Shown: positions 1-33,228 of the stretch, one piece after another | How positions within the stretch are numbered: position 1 is the stretch's first letter | Layout: each line of letters starts with the position of its first letter | NCBI RefSeq assembly: GCF_003334815.1 | Contig: NZ_QOWO01000025.1 | Direction: 5' to 3' (one strand) | From: Escherichia coli | GTDB lineage: Bacteria; Pseudomonadota; Gammaproteobacteria; Enterobacterales; Enterobacteriaceae | DNA length: 64,000 nucleotides | Translations under genes and position numbers: made by a program | Notes under the pieces: model-generated | Told to the model about the DNA's origin: nothing | The model's input: the letters and a program-made list of their open reading frames with translations, nothing else | Database searches by the model: none

Positions 1-296
1 GGCATTTTCCAGCCGGGGCCGAGGCTCCCCACCGGCGCGGGCGTTTTTGTCCGGTAACTGCTGTAGGTGCGGGAGAGAATGAACGGCAGCGGGCCGGGCA
101 GGGCGATGTCGGTTTCACCGGGAAGGACCTTTGCACCGAGCAGCGGATTGACCGGATGGCCGGACGTCACCCCGCCGGGGCACACCGAACAGGCCACGCC
201 GGTGGGGGCACCGATGCGTACCCCGGCTGAACCCTGGACAATGCTACCGCCATACTGCGTCATGTCGCCCTGACGCGCCGCCGGTTTTCCGCTCAT
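1..296 (-). CDS. rhsC: Rhs-family protein, N-terminal part only (gene continues beyond window start)
   Basis: Reverse-complement translation from ATG at 294-296 gives MSGKPAARQGDMTQYGGSIVQGSAGVRIGAPTGVACSVCPGG..., the conserved Rhs N-terminus; position next to ybfA/kdp matches rhsC context. Confidence 0.75.
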   Translation of the reverse strand, partial: MSGKPAARQGDMTQYGGSIVQGSAGVRIGAPTGVACSVCPGGVTSGHPVNPLLGAKVLPGETDIALPGPLPFILSRTYSSYRTKTPAPVGSLGPGWKM

Positions 297-483
297 CTGC
301 TCATCCTTGTTTTATCGGGTTATTTGTCTGCTGACAGGCGAAACCCTACAGATTTATAAGAAAGCCTTAAGTGAGATATCTGTCAGATAAGAACAATTAG
401 GAAAATATTTATATATATTTCATGAATATATGTTTCGATTGGTATAACGATGTCTAAATATTCCTCTGAACATCTTCCTGATA

Positions 484-517
484 CAAAAAACCGCCAGCGT
501 TTCCGCTGGCGGTTTTC
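484..517 (-). terminator. Rho-independent terminator downstream of ybfA
   Basis: GC hairpin ccgccagcg/cgctggcgg with flanking A/T run, immediately 3' of ybfA on minus strand. Confidence 0.6.
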
Positions 518-538
518 AATGTATTCAAAACTCAGCAA

Positions 539-745
539 TCAATAAAAATCACCAGTTGCCTTTTCGGCCTGATCCATCCACACCGGTTTATCGCTGGTTT
601 TCGACCAGACGCGATGCAGGTAGCTGTAAAAGCGGGCGCGGTCTTTCCAGAAAAGCATGAAAGGCAGCGCCAGAACGCCCGCTGCAACCGCATAAGTACG
701 GCGTAAAAAGATAAGCCATGCAGGATATTCTCTGTAGAGTTCCAT
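539..745 (-). CDS. ybfA: DUF2517 small protein YbfA
   Basis: 68-aa [26 protein letters not shown]... matches recalled YbfA; conserved position upstream of kdp operon. Confidence 0.8.
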
Positions 746-956
746 ACTTTTCTCCCCCTTTTGTATCTACCCGGTGAATGGCACCGGAAAAATGAATTTG
801 TTTATCTGATGAAAATAGTACCGCCTTTTGTGTAATTTTACTACTCATCCGACCACTTATTTTTGCTTATTGATGGTTTATTTACATTCATCCTGTAATT
901 AAGTTACACAAAAGTTAAATTAATACTAAACATTAGTTAAATCATGGCTTTTGCCA

Positions 957-1030
957 TTTTTATACTTTTTTTACACCCCGCCCGCAGATTTTTGCGAAAT
1001 CTTTGCAGCCAGAATTCTACCCTTCCGGTA
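957..1030 (+). promoter_or_regulatory. kdpFABC promoter region with KdpE-binding T-rich box
   Basis: Sequence ttttatactttttttacaccccgcccg about 75-100 bp upstream of kdpF resembles the recalled KdpE operator of PkdpF. Confidence 0.5.
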
Positions 1031-1057
1031 TCACTTTTAGGCCACTGGAGGTGCACT

Positions 1058-1147
1058 GTGAGTGCAGGCGTGATAACCGGCGTATTGCTGGTGTTTTTAT
1101 TACTGGGTTATCTGGTTTATGCCCTGATCAATGCGGAGGCGTTCTGA
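1058..1147 (+). CDS. kdpF: K+-transporting ATPase small subunit KdpF
   Basis: GTG start; 29-aa hydrophobic peptide [29 protein letters not shown]; stop overlaps kdpA ATG. Confidence 0.85.
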
Positions 1148-8149: not shown

Positions 8150-8823
8150 CAAACGTTCTGATTGTTGAAGATGAACAGGCTATTCGTCGCTTTCTGCGCA
8201 CGGCGCTGGAGGGCGACGGGATGCGCGTCTTTGAGGCCGAAACGCTGCAACGCGGCTTGCTGGAAGCGGCAACCCGTAAGCCAGATTTGATTATTCTCGA
8301 TCTCGGCCTGCCCGATGGTGATGGGATTGAGTTTATCCGCGACCTGCGCCAGTGGAGCGCGGTGCCGGTGATTGTGCTTTCCGCACGCAGCGAAGAGAGC
8401 GACAAAATCGCCGCGCTGGATGCCGGAGCGGATGATTATCTGAGTAAGCCGTTTGGCATTGGCGAATTGCAGGCCCGTCTGCGCGTCGCATTACGCCGCC
8501 ACTCTGCCACCACCGCGCCCGATCCGCTGGTAAAATTTTCCGATGTTACCGTCGATTTAGCCGCCCGCGTGATTCACCGGGGTGAGGAAGAGGTGCATCT
8601 CACACCAATTGAGTTCCGCCTGCTGGCGGTGCTGCTCAACAATGCCGGAAAAGTACTCACCCAGCGCCAGCTCCTTAACCAGGTGTGGGGGCCAAACGCG
8701 GTCGAACACAGTCACTATTTGCGTATTTATATGGGACATCTGCGACAAAAACTGGAACAGGATCCCGCCCGCCCACGCCATTTCATTACTGAAACCGGTA
8801 TTGGCTATCGGTTTATGCTTTGA
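8146..8823 (+). CDS. kdpE: Response regulator KdpE (OmpR family)
   Basis: 225-aa [20 protein letters not shown]...; receiver domain plus winged-helix C-terminus; 4-bp overlap with kdpD. Confidence 0.95.
   Translation: MTNVLIVEDEQAIRRFLRTALEGDGMRVFEAETLQRGLLEAATRKPDLIILDLGLPDGDGIEFIRDLRQWSAVPVIVLSARSEESDKIAALDAGADDYLSKPFGIGELQARLRVALRRHSATTAPDPLVKFSDVTVDLAARVIHRGEEEVHLTPIEFRLLAVLLNNAGKVLTQRQLLNQVWGPNAVEHSHYLRIYMGHLRQKLEQDPARPRHFITETGIGYRFML
8694..8823 (+). repeat. Direct repeat copy 1 (3' end of kdpE)
   Basis: About 130 bp, roughly 92% identical to 13029-13158 by manual alignment. Confidence 0.85.
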
Positions 8824-8858
8824 ATATTAATTTTAATACAGCCTGCCTTTTATTAATT

Positions 8859-12978: not shown

Positions 12979-13028
12979 TGTTGGCAAATAGTTCGTTATT
13001 TATGCCGCATCCGGCAGATGTAGGGTCT

Positions 13029-13158
13029 AAACGCGATCGAACACAGCAACTATTTGCGTAATTATATGGGGCATCTGCGACAAAAACTGGAACAGGATCC
13101 GGCCCGGCCTCGCCATTTTATTACTGAAACCGGTATTGGGTATCGGTTTATGCTTTGA
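13029..13158 (+). pseudogene. Orphan kdpE 3' fragment (direct repeat copy 2)
   Basis: In-frame it encodes NAIEHSNYLRNYMGHLRQKLEQDPARPRHFITETGIGYRFML-stop versus the KdpE C-terminus; 10 nt differences over 43 codons (7 synonymous, 3 nonsynonymous); no start codon or upstream gene body. Confidence 0.8.
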
Positions 13159-13281
13159 AAAAAGTGGCAATGTATGGATAAAGTCATTTTTTATTCAAAT
13201 ATAAGGAACTTAATATTTAAAAAATGTTCCATACAATTCCTCATCATAAATGACACCGTAGCACACAAGGAGCAAGTAGCG

Positions 13282-13932
13282 ATGCGTGAAATGAATCAGT
13301 TAGTAAATACTGAAGATTCAGCCTGGCCAATAATCCAGAACTGGTTAAAAGACGCCACAAACCATACCGAACTCTTACCGGTTAATAAAGATTTAGCCGA
13401 AACCGCACTTTATCAATTACAGGTGACAACAAAATCACCGATGGGTGCGCTTGTCTATGGCTCCGGAGGTCTGCTGATTGATAATGGTTGGTTACGCATA
13501 GCAGGATCTGGTCACCCCCGGTTGCCACGAGATCCAGTAAGTTGGACACAACGCCCTGAATTCGCAGGCGTGCGGGCTTTACCCATCGCTGACGATGTCG
13601 CAGGGGGAATTTTTGCTCTTAATGGTGGCGATCTTGGGGAAGATACTGGCTGCGTTTATTATTTTGCGCCAGATACGCTGAATTGGGAAAGTCTGGAAGT
13701 TGGATATTCTGAGTTTCTTCAGTGGGCATTATCCGGTGATTTAGATACCTTCTATGAAAATGTACGATGGCAGCAATGGCGAGAAGACGTAATAAAATTA
13801 TCGGCAACGGAAGCCTTCACGTTCTACCCTTTCTTATGGGTACAAAGTGAAGAAGCAAGAACAAGAAAAGTTATTTCGCTTACTGAACTCTGGGAAATGC
13901 AGTATCAAATGAAAGAAACATTCACGCAATAA
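13282..13932 (+). CDS. ybfG: DUF2625-family protein YbfG
   Basis: 216-aa product from ATG at 13282 with AGGAG ribosome-binding site 7 nt upstream; six-frame ORF 13174-13932 trimmed. Confidence 0.65.
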   Translation: MREMNQLVNTEDSAWPIIQNWLKDATNHTELLPVNKDLAETALYQLQVTTKSPMGALVYGSGGLLIDNGWLRIAGSGHPRLPRDPVSWTQRPEFAGVRALPIADDVAGGIFALNGGDLGEDTGCVYYFAPDTLNWESLEVGYSEFLQWALSGDLDTFYENVRWQQWREDVIKLSATEAFTFYPFLWVQSEEARTRKVISLTELWEMQYQMKETFTQ

Positions 13933-14467: not shown

Positions 14468-14527
14468 TGGGATTTCCTTGAGCTACTCAGTTTGTTGACA
14501 AAGTGTTCGTTGTTTTTGCCGGATGCG

Positions 14528-14625
14528 GCGTGAACGCCTTATCCGGCCTACAAAATCGCTTAAATTCAATATATTGCACCATCCTCGTAGGCCTGATAAG
14601 CGTAGCGCATCAGGCAATTCTGTGT
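14528..14625. repeat. REP/BIME palindromic elements
   Basis: gccggatgcggcgtgaacgccttatccggcctac and inverted partner ...taggcctgataagcgtagcgcatcaggc. Confidence 0.85.
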
Positions 14626-14637
14626 TTGTCATACGTA

Positions 14638-21925: not shown

Positions 21926-21943
21926 GGATTGTTTGCTGTTTCT

Positions 21944-22112
21944 TGCCGGATGCGGCGTGAACGCCTTATCCGGCCTACAAAAGCACGCAAACTCAATATA
22001 TTGCAGAGATCATGTAGGCCTGATAAGCGTAGCGCATCAGGCAATTTAGCGTTTGAAACTGTTTGTCTGTTCCTTGCCGGATGCGACGTAAACGCCCCAT
22101 CCGGCATAGCGA
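21944..22112. repeat. REP/BIME cluster
   Basis: Multiple gccggatgcggcgtgaacgcc / taggcctgataagcgtagcgcatcaggc palindromic units. Confidence 0.85.
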
Positions 22113-30336: not shown

Positions 30337-30356
30337 CTGATGACAAACGCCAAACT

Positions 30357-30458
30357 GCCTGATGCGCTACGCTTATCAGGCCTACGCAGCTCCTGCAATA
30401 TATTGAATTTTCATGCTTTTGTAGGCCGGATAAGGCGTTCACGCCGCATCCGGCATGA
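30357..30458. repeat. REP/BIME elements
   Basis: gcctgatgcgctacgcttatcaggcctac ... gtaggccggataaggcgttcacgccgcatccggc. Confidence 0.85.
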
Positions 30459-30701
30459 ACAAATCGCACTTTGTCAGCAATTTGGCCCCCGTAAAATATA
30501 AACATTCAATAAAACCCGCTAAAAATTATCGATTCATCAATAAATATATCCTCACACCAGACCTTTTTTCACCAATCGACAATCACCATTACGTTTTTTA
30601 TTTTTTCACCGCCAAATCGCTTGCGCACAGTGCTGCTTTGCGGCATTTTTTTAAACAAGCAAACACAACAAGCAACAAATACCAGGTTAACGGAGAAGGT
30701 T

Positions 30702-32745: not shown

Positions 32746-32822
32746 GGCTACGTAGCTCAGTTGGTTAGAGCACATCACTCATAATGATGGGGTCACAGGT
32801 TCGAATCCCGTCGTAGCCACCA
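32746..32822 (+). tRNA. metT: tRNA-Met (elongator, anticodon CAU)
   Basis: 77-nt cloverleaf ggctacgtagctcag...gtagccacca with CAT in the anticodon loop and encoded CCA. Confidence 0.9.
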
Positions 32823-32831
32823 TCTTTTTTT

Positions 32832-32916
32832 GCGGGAGTGGCGAAATTGGTAGACGCACCAGATTTAGGTTCTGGCGCCGCAAGGTGTGCGAGTTCAAGT
32901 CTCGCCTCCCGCACCA
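32832..32916 (+). tRNA. leuW: tRNA-Leu (anticodon UAG)
   Basis: 85-nt class II tRNA gcgggagtggcgaaattggtag...cccgcacca, long variable arm. Confidence 0.9.
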
Positions 32917-32939
32917 TTCACCAGAAAGCGTTGTACGGA

Positions 32940-33014
32940 TGGGGTATCGCCAAGCGGTAAGGCACCGGTTTTTGATACCGGCATTCCCTGGTTCGAATCC
33001 AGGTACCCCAGCCA
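32940..33014 (+). tRNA. glnU: tRNA-Gln (anticodon UUG)
   Basis: 75-nt tggggtatcgccaagcggtaagg...ccccagcca; anticodon loop ttTTGat. Confidence 0.9.
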
Positions 33015-33029
33015 TCGAAGAAACAATCT

Positions 33030-33106
33030 GGCTACGTAGCTCAGTTGGTTAGAGCACATCACTCATAATGATGGGGTCACAGGTTCGAATCCCGTCGTAG
33101 CCACCA
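33030..33106 (+). tRNA. metU: tRNA-Met (elongator, anticodon CAU), second copy
   Basis: Identical 77-nt sequence to 32746-32822. Confidence 0.9.
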
Positions 33107-33153
33107 AATTCTGAATGTGTCGAATATGTTCGGCAAATTCAAAACCAATTTGT

Positions 33154-33228
33154 TGGGGTATCGCCAAGCGGTAAGGCACCGGATTCTGATTCCGGCATTC
33201 CGAGGTTCGAATCCTCGTACCCCAGCCA
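33154..33228 (+). tRNA. glnV: tRNA-Gln (anticodon CUG)
   Basis: 75-nt tggggtatcgccaagcggtaagg...ccccagcca; anticodon loop ttCTGat. Confidence 0.9.

Follow-up and report, generated by a model that had tools for sequence, protein, structure and literature searches.

The promoter-proximal end of an RhsC accessory element beside ybfA in Escherichia coli, with an rhsC gene that is most likely intact yet cryptic

The DNA analysed here is a 64-kb stretch (64,000 bases, hereafter the window) of Escherichia coli. Its gene order is rhsC (minus strand), ybfA (minus), kdpFABCDE (plus), speFL-speF-potE and, further on, mrdA and mrdB, which is the K-12 map read backwards. The locus is E. coli rhs position 5, between kdpA and phr (Jackson et al., PMC2935791). 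The features at the rhsC end of the window are listed in Table 1. The core-genome neighbour upstream of rhsC is ybfA, which is neither a vgrG nor an eagR gene. A chaperoned type VI secretion system (T6SS) Rhs locus of the order vgrG-eagR/DUF1795-rhs was considered for this site and rejected, since ybfA (DUF2517) and then the divergent kdp operon lie upstream.

Table 1. Features at the rhsC end of the window (a slash in a peptide marks the predicted cut)
Feature	Position	Strand	Basis or description
rhsC 5' end, codons 1-98 plus 2 nt	1..296	minus	Translation, RHS_core match, K-12 identity, annotation in matching genomes
DUF6531 plug start, residues 46-97	6..161	minus	Pfam PF20148, E=1.2e-12, model positions 1-47 of 74
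Predicted N-terminal self-cleavage site His47-Pro48 (GH/PVNPLLGAKVLPGETD)	153..158	minus	Alignment with Tse5
Putative single PAAR repeat SGKPAARQGDMTQYGGSIVQGSAGVRIG, residues 2-29	210..293	minus	PDB matches, sub-threshold profile matches
AT-rich rhsC leader / regulatory spacer, 188 nt	297..484	minus	GC 0.25-0.37; missing where rhs is absent at the site
Shine-Dalgarno AAGGA	304..308	minus	7 nt 5' of the rhsC ATG; kept in rhsA, rhsB and rhsD leaders
Candidate -10 TATAAA	353..358	minus	Starts 62 nt 5' of the ATG; relaxed scan
Candidate -10 TATAAA within ATATAAATAT	408..413	minus	Starts 117 nt 5' of the ATG; relaxed scan, -35 match 3/6
ybfA intrinsic terminator	485..516	minus	9-bp GC stem 491-499/504-512; U-run 490-485
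ybfA, 68 aa, DUF2517	539..745	minus	ORF list, annotation, Pfam PF10725

The ATG of rhsC occupies 296-294 on the minus strand (CAT at 294-296 on the plus strand), and the frame is open to position 1 and runs past it, with 98 of 1,397 codons (7%) inside the window. The minus-strand translation begins MSGKPAARQGDMTQYGG, and the complete 98-residue fragment is MSGKPAARQGDMTQYGGSIVQGSAGVRIGAPTGVACSVCPGGVTSGHPVNPLLGAKVLPGETDIALPGPLPFILSRTYSSYRTKTPAPVGSLGPGWKM. With the NCBIfam model NF041261 (RHS_core), residues 1-98 were matched to model positions 1-98 of 1,261 (E=4.6e-61, 206.9 bits); the score stays below the 2,000-bit full-length cutoff for the sole reason that 98 aa were available. The fragment is 100% identical to residues 1-98 of K-12 RhsC (WP_000015200.1). 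Many complete E. coli genomes, K-12 MG1655 among them, match window positions 1-1100 as a whole with 100% identity, and carry the annotation rhsC, ybfA and kdpF there. The GC content is 0.64-0.72 over the coding positions 1-300 versus 0.25-0.37 over 301-500, and the fragment thus fits the published description of a G+C-rich rhs core beside A+T-rich flanks (PMC2935791). No defect was found in the part of rhsC inside the window.

The fragment is the 5' end of rhsC, which encodes an Rhs core protein of the E. coli RhsA-B-C-F subfamily. That the minus strand from 296 to 1 encodes a canonical Rhs N-terminus, and that an AT-rich stretch lies upstream of the start of the gene, had both been proposed from the letters of the sequence, and both proposals held: the former through RHS_core, DUF6531 and the identity with K-12 RhsC, the latter through the GC contrast across position 300. 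Spurious long ORFs do arise in GC-rich DNA, and a plus-strand ORF of 68 aa overlaps at 67-273, which would suit a reading of 296 to 1 as a chance ORF and no gene. However, the RHS_core match starts at model position 1, the fragment is 100% identical to a protein annotated in thousands of genomes, and the Shine-Dalgarno spacing is correct. The genome matches and the profile match together refute the chance-ORF reading, whose probability is negligible.

When residues 1-47 of RhsC were compared with the PDB, all matches were PAAR proteins, each aligned through its last repeat only (9rce_c, E=8.9e-4; 4jiv_D, E=0.011; 4jiw_D; 8gra_J). The RhsC repeat corresponds to the last of the three repeats in a PAAR spike-tip domain. 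Its motifs run in the order P5-A6-A7-R8-Q-G-D, G16G17 and I28G29, that is, PAAR followed by GD, GG and IG. On the same fragment, the NCBIfam model NF033420 (T6SS_PAAR_dom) scored 16.4 bits against a cutoff of 124 bits and aligned at positions 68-94 of 94 only, and Pfam PAAR_motif (PF05488) was likewise sub-threshold (E=0.027). Because the PDB matches cover the last repeat only and the family models stay below threshold, the head was read as one PAAR repeat and no full PAAR domain. A complete three-repeat domain of about 90 residues was rejected, since one repeat (residues 2-29) precedes the 47/48 junction and the family scores are sub-threshold. The PAAR assignment, built on a single repeat and sub-threshold family scores, is putative.

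A short Cys-containing linker connects this repeat to His47-Pro48. In the alignment, Pro48 falls on residue 1 of the Tse5 shell chain 8cp6_B (PVNPMLGSKLLPEEVD in Tse5 versus PVNPLLGAKVLPGETD in RhsC), and the three compared junctions read GH47/P48VNPLLGAKVLP in RhsC, K47/P48VNPMLGSKLLP in Tse5 and TH/PVHAATGAKVL in Pseudomonas protegens RhsA. The RhsC sequence thus carries the pattern of Lys or His, the cut, and then P-V-x-x-x-x-G-x-K-x-L at the start of the shell. In Tse5 the cut falls between K47 and P48, and in P. protegens RhsA the residue just before the corresponding cut, position -1, is His (PMC10684867). His47-Pro48 is therefore the predicted N-terminal autoproteolysis site of RhsC, of the Tse5/RhsA type. 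The M1-K47 piece of Tse5 is a 5-kDa PAAR-like fragment required for secretion, and in the structure of Tse5 the N-terminal plug is formed by DUF6531 (PMC10684867). The first two thirds of DUF6531 of RhsC are inside the window, whose edge cuts the domain. As judged by sequence comparison, the whole predicted secretion-adaptor head would lie inside the window, together with the predicted cleavage site and two thirds of the plug.

Among solved structures, full-length RhsC has its best homologue in Tse5 of P. aeruginosa (PA2684; 8cp6; E=1e-125), a T6SS Rhs pore-forming toxin, and RhsA of P. protegens (7q97) was matched with E=6e-82. Tse5 resembles RhsC in its 47-aa PAAR-like head, in a shell that starts at P48 (PVNPxLGxKxLP), in the DUF6531 plug and in the DPxG...DPxG protease motif. 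The two differ at residue 47 (Lys in Tse5, His in RhsC) and in their tips, which are unrelated. Furthermore, Tse5 is encoded beside its VgrG and secreted by the active H1-T6SS, whereas rhsC adjoins ybfA. P. protegens RhsA, Photorhabdus Rhs1/Tre23 (7pq5) and Aeromonas TseI form a YD-shell cocoon with double autoproteolysis and VgrG mounting, features that RhsC may share by analogy; P. protegens RhsA, like RhsC, has His before the Pro at the cut, which in RhsC is predicted. In contrast to the 47-residue head of RhsC, these three proteins have N-terminal regions of 25-45 kDa that include prePAAR and transmembrane segments; they also have a full PAAR domain and Eag or Tec chaperones of their own. 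None of these features was found in the RhsC head.

The right end of the RhsC accessory element was placed between positions 484 and 485 by aligning the junction with genomes in which the site is empty. The element is an insertion of about 9.6 kb between ybgA and ybfA (about 9,568 bp in K-12) whose left end lies beside ybgA and whose right end abuts the ybfA terminator; it has replaced 8 bp of the empty site (GCGAAAAG). It is carried by 3,687 of 5,426 complete E. coli genomes (68%). In about a third of E. coli genomes the match to the query starts only at 485-487, and in two empty-site genomes ybgA lies about 100 bp from ybfA. Given this boundary, the whole 188-nt leader arrived with the Rhs element and is no part of the core genome. 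The original prediction had let the AT-rich region end at about 480, which came near the mapped limit. The core genome starts at position 485, as does the A-run of the ybfA terminator, a hairpin with a folding energy of -32.1 kcal/mol (z=-6.6). This hairpin was missed by the terminator scan and found by direct folding, probably because A-U pairs lengthen the stem into the U-run.

At a coverage of at least 80%, the rhsC leader was found in 3,709 genomes, at a median of two sites per genome, of which the second is the leader of rhsA. The two leaders are 100% identical from -1 to -72 and about 85% identical to about -135, and are unrelated beyond. With the rhsB and rhsD leaders, the rhsC leader has only a ATATAAATA-type block and the Shine-Dalgarno region in common. 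The strict sigma-70 scan, which called for TTGACA-N16-18-TATAAT with at least 9 of 12 matches, returned 0 sites in window 1-1100. The relaxed scan of the leader gave only two TATAAA boxes, both with poor -35 partners. The box nearer to the gene falls where the leaders of rhsC and rhsA are 100% identical, and has a weak -35, CAGATA (TGGATA in rhsA), 18 nt away with 3 of 6 matches. The farther box belongs to the ATATAAATAT block, the sole upstream block conserved in all four K-12 leaders, rhsA to rhsD. The leader RNA folded no better than shuffled sequences (z=0.25) in the search for structure or a riboregulator, and an Rfam search of window 1-1100 gave no match. In MB10 and XJ23PTE1, an IS1 was observed within the rhsC leader.

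Published data on the identical K-12 sequence bear on the promoter. Genomic SELEX gave, in vitro, an RpoE-holoenzyme peak between ybfA and rhsC, at K-12 coordinate 728,638 (PMC5493296), which maps near window position 464, and the K-12 rhsC region was reported as a silenced protein-occupancy domain (PMC8282354). These data point to a weak or conditional rhsC promoter. Inspection by eye near the SELEX peak gave only GGAATAT...TCGAA as an RpoE-type -35/-10 pair; its 19-nt spacer is too long, and for this reason no RpoE site is claimed there. The description of the AT-rich stretch as a promoter region needs qualification: the AT-rich leader is there, but window 1-1100 has no consensus sigma-70 site. 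Promoter region is a reasonable label for this leader, with the two boxes as candidates and the promoter itself putative.

The same gene lies at the same chromosomal site in K-12 (RhsC, b0700, WP_000015200.1), where residues 1-98, the leader, the ybfA terminator, ybfA and kdpF are identical over 1-1100. The K-12 element is made up of rhsC-ybfB-rhsO/ybfC-H-rpt/ISAs1 remnants. The strain is K-12-like; over the 64 kb, the window differs from MG1655 by about 15 SNPs, by a tRNA array of five genes instead of seven that is 221 bp shorter, and by the lack of the IS5 that MG1655 has between lnt and gltI. The K-12 paralogue RhsA (b3593) has the same N-terminal protein sequence as RhsC, but its gene is at another chromosomal site, beside yibF, with a leader that is unrelated further upstream. 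Work by Vlazny and Hill from 1995, cited in PMC3150448, reportedly found that the tip and immunity pair of RhsA differ from those of RhsC.

Since the window contains 7% of rhsC, statements on the shell, tip and immunity gene were drawn from other genomes. Among the matches listed from 5,426 complete genomes searched, none is base-for-base identical to the 64-kb window, and the best 25-kb match among those listed has about two mismatches. ECCTRSRTH03, isolated from swine in Thailand, aligns collinearly along exactly 64,000 bases, with only a few mismatches, and is the only genome among the matches listed that covers 25,001-50,000 in one piece; because of this collinearity over all 64 kb it was taken as the best proxy for the window strain. 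Its rhsC is 4,194 nt long and encodes a protein identical to K-12 RhsC (1,397 aa). After it come ybfB, an orphan rhs fragment truncated at its 5' end, ybfC and remnants of ISAs1 (H-rpt), and the locus ends at ybgA-phrB. The same layout was found in K-12, 52F4 and Z1323HEC0011. In these relatives YbfB is a hydrophobic protein of 108 aa, and the orphan fragment (506 aa) is paired with ybfC. Both K-12 and ECCTRSRTH03 RhsC have PISNIDPLGL at 1238-1247 and DPIG-x18-DPLG at 1221-1246, and the K-12 tip comprises residues 1248-1397 (150 aa). The core, PxxxxDPxGL boundary, tip and immunity gene that had been expected beyond position 1 are thus present there in close relatives. On the 1,397-aa protein, Pfam identified DUF6531, TEN_YD-shell, RHS_repeat and RHS. 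Neither the RhsC tip nor YbfB nor YbfC matched a Pfam family, and NCBIfam returned nothing for these three, for the orphan tip or for YbfA. The tip is rich in Cys and YbfB has the look of a membrane protein, from which an envelope target is predicted. One paper names rhsC only for an incidental T186A mutation (PMC9546599).

Not all relatives keep this arrangement. In ML35, which matches the first 25 kb with about three mismatches, the IS5-like element ISKpn26 lies after rhsC codon 1373. In BA92 the gene is a chimera of 1,118 aa that ends in the orphan tip and is followed by ybfC, with ybfB lost. The disrupted-gene scenario, which had been named beforehand as the outcome that would count against a complete toxin/immunity locus, therefore does occur in close relatives, and rhsC was damaged or rearranged in two of the six examined (ML35 and BA92). 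52F4 differs from K-12 RhsC at seven amino acids (positions 1127-1167), and since six of the seven are orphan-copy residues, the patch is attributed to gene conversion from the orphan copy. In H122 and H123, the locus is annotated only as 'DUF6531 domain-containing protein'.

The window could accordingly show a genuine 5' end of an rhsC that is broken or rearranged just past position 1 and left as a pseudogene head, whether by an IS insertion, by an out-of-register fusion of main and orphan copies, or by reduction to a short DUF6531-only remnant. ML35, BA92, the annotation in H122 and H123 and the leader IS1 in MB10 and XJ23PTE1 speak for such damage, as does the presence of the K-12-type tip with ybfB in only 2,536 of the about 3,687 genomes that have rhs at this site. 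Against it, rhsC is intact in ECCTRSRTH03, the sole genome among those listed that is collinear over the whole window, and in K-12, 52F4 and Z1323HEC0011, which are three of the five further close relatives examined, and the portion inside the window is free of defects. A broken gene is thus unlikely, although it keeps appreciable weight. From the gene states in the relatives and the genome counts for the tip and ybfB, the source strain probably carries an intact K-12-type rhsC.

For an intact rhsC, the mode of action would follow the solved homologues Tse5, RhsA, Rhs1/Tre23 and TseI (PMC10684867, PMC7170923), from which it is extrapolated to RhsC. The YD-repeat shell would enclose the C-terminal RhsC toxin, and an internal aspartyl protease (DPxGx18DPxG) would release the tip after PxxxxDPxGL. 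The PAAR-like N-terminal piece would seat the cocoon on a VgrG spike, a T6SS would deliver the loaded spike into a neighbouring cell, and the product of the downstream immunity gene ybfB would shield sister cells.

None of vgrG, eagR or the tss genes was found within the 64-kb window. A T6SS is lacking in E. coli K-12 and B, and 'neighborless' Rhs are a recognised class (PMC6730261), which rhsC fits. In the proxy strain, the one island inspected (the aspV island of ECCTRSRTH03) has hcp, tssM, vasL and vasI, with tssA and tssH as pseudogenes and neither tssBC nor vgrG annotated. Because rhsC has no adjacent vgrG or eagR, because the T6SS is missing in K-12 and decayed in the proxy, and because the K-12 locus is reported to be silenced, rhsC is probably cryptic. 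Contact-dependent competition, to which Rhs loci had been linked beforehand, stands as a property of the family; for RhsC it is family analogy, and K-12 and B are without a T6SS (PMC6730261).

Two other roles for an intact gene were weighed. First, rhsC could be an active, expressed T6SS effector of the source strain that serves in competition, mounted on a VgrG from another locus. PAAR-Rhs proteins of E. coli, 'neighborless' T6SS2-Rhs relatives among them, have been described as effectors of the T6SS (PMC6730261), both the N-terminal PAAR repeat and the plug are intact, the element is kept in 68% of genomes, and the leader carries the in vitro RpoE-holoenzyme peak. We nevertheless regard an active effector as improbable, given that vgrG, eagR and tss genes are absent from the window, that K-12 and B strains have no T6SS, that the aspV T6SS island of the proxy is decayed, that the K-12 locus is reported to be silenced and that the leader has no consensus promoter. 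Second, rhsC might be retained in T6SS-less, K-12-like E. coli for a T6SS-independent role and be no silent weapon relic, an option to which we give very little credence. In that case it may be a stress-induced toxin/immunity module whose leader is driven by an alternative sigma factor such as RpoE, or the one-repeat PAAR head may ride on a different carrier. We hold with good confidence to the reading that positions 1-484 are the promoter-proximal end of the E. coli RhsC accessory element and that the gene is most likely intact yet cryptic.

In conclusion, rhsC, which has been known from E. coli K-12 for decades, is one of the founding members of the Rhs elements. As a textbook gene at a textbook site the finding was already known, and its importance goes little past correct annotation. 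What is gained is a precise map, with the boundary between 484 and 485, a leader that is owned by the element and common with rhsA, and the head with its predicted cleavage site. The relatives show how rhs loci change, whether by gene conversion from the orphan, by insertion of an IS or by fusion out of register.

Relative to K-12, the sequence of rhsC in strain 52F4 has six clustered amino acid changes at codons 1127-1167 (A1127E, S1131N, I1158V, T1163A, A1165E and Y1167C), each of them to the very residue that the orphan rhs fragment downstream of rhsC, a 5'-truncated rhs piece (K-12 locus L001:6226-7746), has at that site. By sequence comparison, the patch is a gene conversion from the orphan fragment into the main rhsC gene. 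The orphan fragment is also represented in the Rhs protein of strain BA92, in which residues 1-717 were ~94% identical to RhsC 1-724 and residues 652-1118 were 98% identical to the orphan fragment; ybfC lies directly 3' of this gene, while ybfB and the RhsC C-terminal toxin part (tip) are missing. The two parts are fused out of register, at the cost of ~280 shell residues, so that the cocoon of this chimeric protein is probably defective.

The rhsC locus was repeatedly struck by IS elements. In two strains, MB10 (L021 ~690-1460) and XJ23PTE1, an IS1 was found within the AT-rich leader of rhsC, which corresponds to window 297-484, and the IS5-like ISKpn26 was located within the AT-rich toxin tip of ML35 (L005 4993-5973). 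A further Rhs fragment, 5'-truncated and followed by an ISAs1 copy, abuts tssH in the aspV island of ECCTRSRTH03, a genome collinear with the whole window. The type VI secretion cluster of this island contains hcp, vasL, tssM and vasI together with truncated tssA and tssH; the junction of truncated tssH with the Rhs fragment and the decayed gene set therefore suggest that a deletion took out most of the apparatus.

Coordinates of the features in the window and in related E. coli loci
Feature	Location	Remarks
metT-type tRNA operon	window 32746-33228	Met, Leu, Gln-UUG, Met, Gln-CUG
DUF2625 gene with internal stop	window 13282-13932	between potE and lipoprotein gene; pseudogene in K-12 annotation
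Three interspersed repeats, ~115-140 bp	window 14492-14632, 21930-22055, 30340-30480	intergenic; 85-90% identical, one pair inverted
sroC sRNA, full-length	window 41616-41778	gltI-gltJ region; Rfam RF00369, 174.8 bits
K-12 RhsC tip and ybfB	L001:7777-8560	outside window
1,118-aa Rhs, strain BA92	L007 11940-15296	
Decayed type VI secretion cluster, ECCTRSRTH03 aspV island	L020 12037-27393	adjoins tRNA-Asp

The window strain is K-12-like but is not MG1655, because the IS5 between lnt and gltI of MG1655 is absent (window ~40605-40612) and ~15 SNPs separate the two. In addition, the metT-type operon contains seven tRNA genes in MG1655, whereas that of the window contains five and is 221 bp shorter, apparently through loss of DNA between repeated tRNA units; of the genomes listed, ECCTRSRTH03 alone has the five-gene form of the window. 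The kdpE 3' end is duplicated, with a 145-bp copy of 90% identity located 3' of potE (window 8680-8824 and 13015-13159); the K-12 annotation lists this copy as a truncated winged-helix pseudogene. The third interspersed repeat overlaps an Rfam ES036/CssrF sRNA match (30378-30420; 41.1 bits, gathering score 37.6). The position of sroC is normal for E. coli.

RhsC tip, YbfB and YbfC had no family match in Pfam or NCBIfam. Since the 150-aa K-12 tip is cysteine-rich, K-12 YbfB is a small, strongly hydrophobic protein and the YbfC N-terminus carries a signal-peptide-like segment, their sequences hint at envelope-acting toxins.
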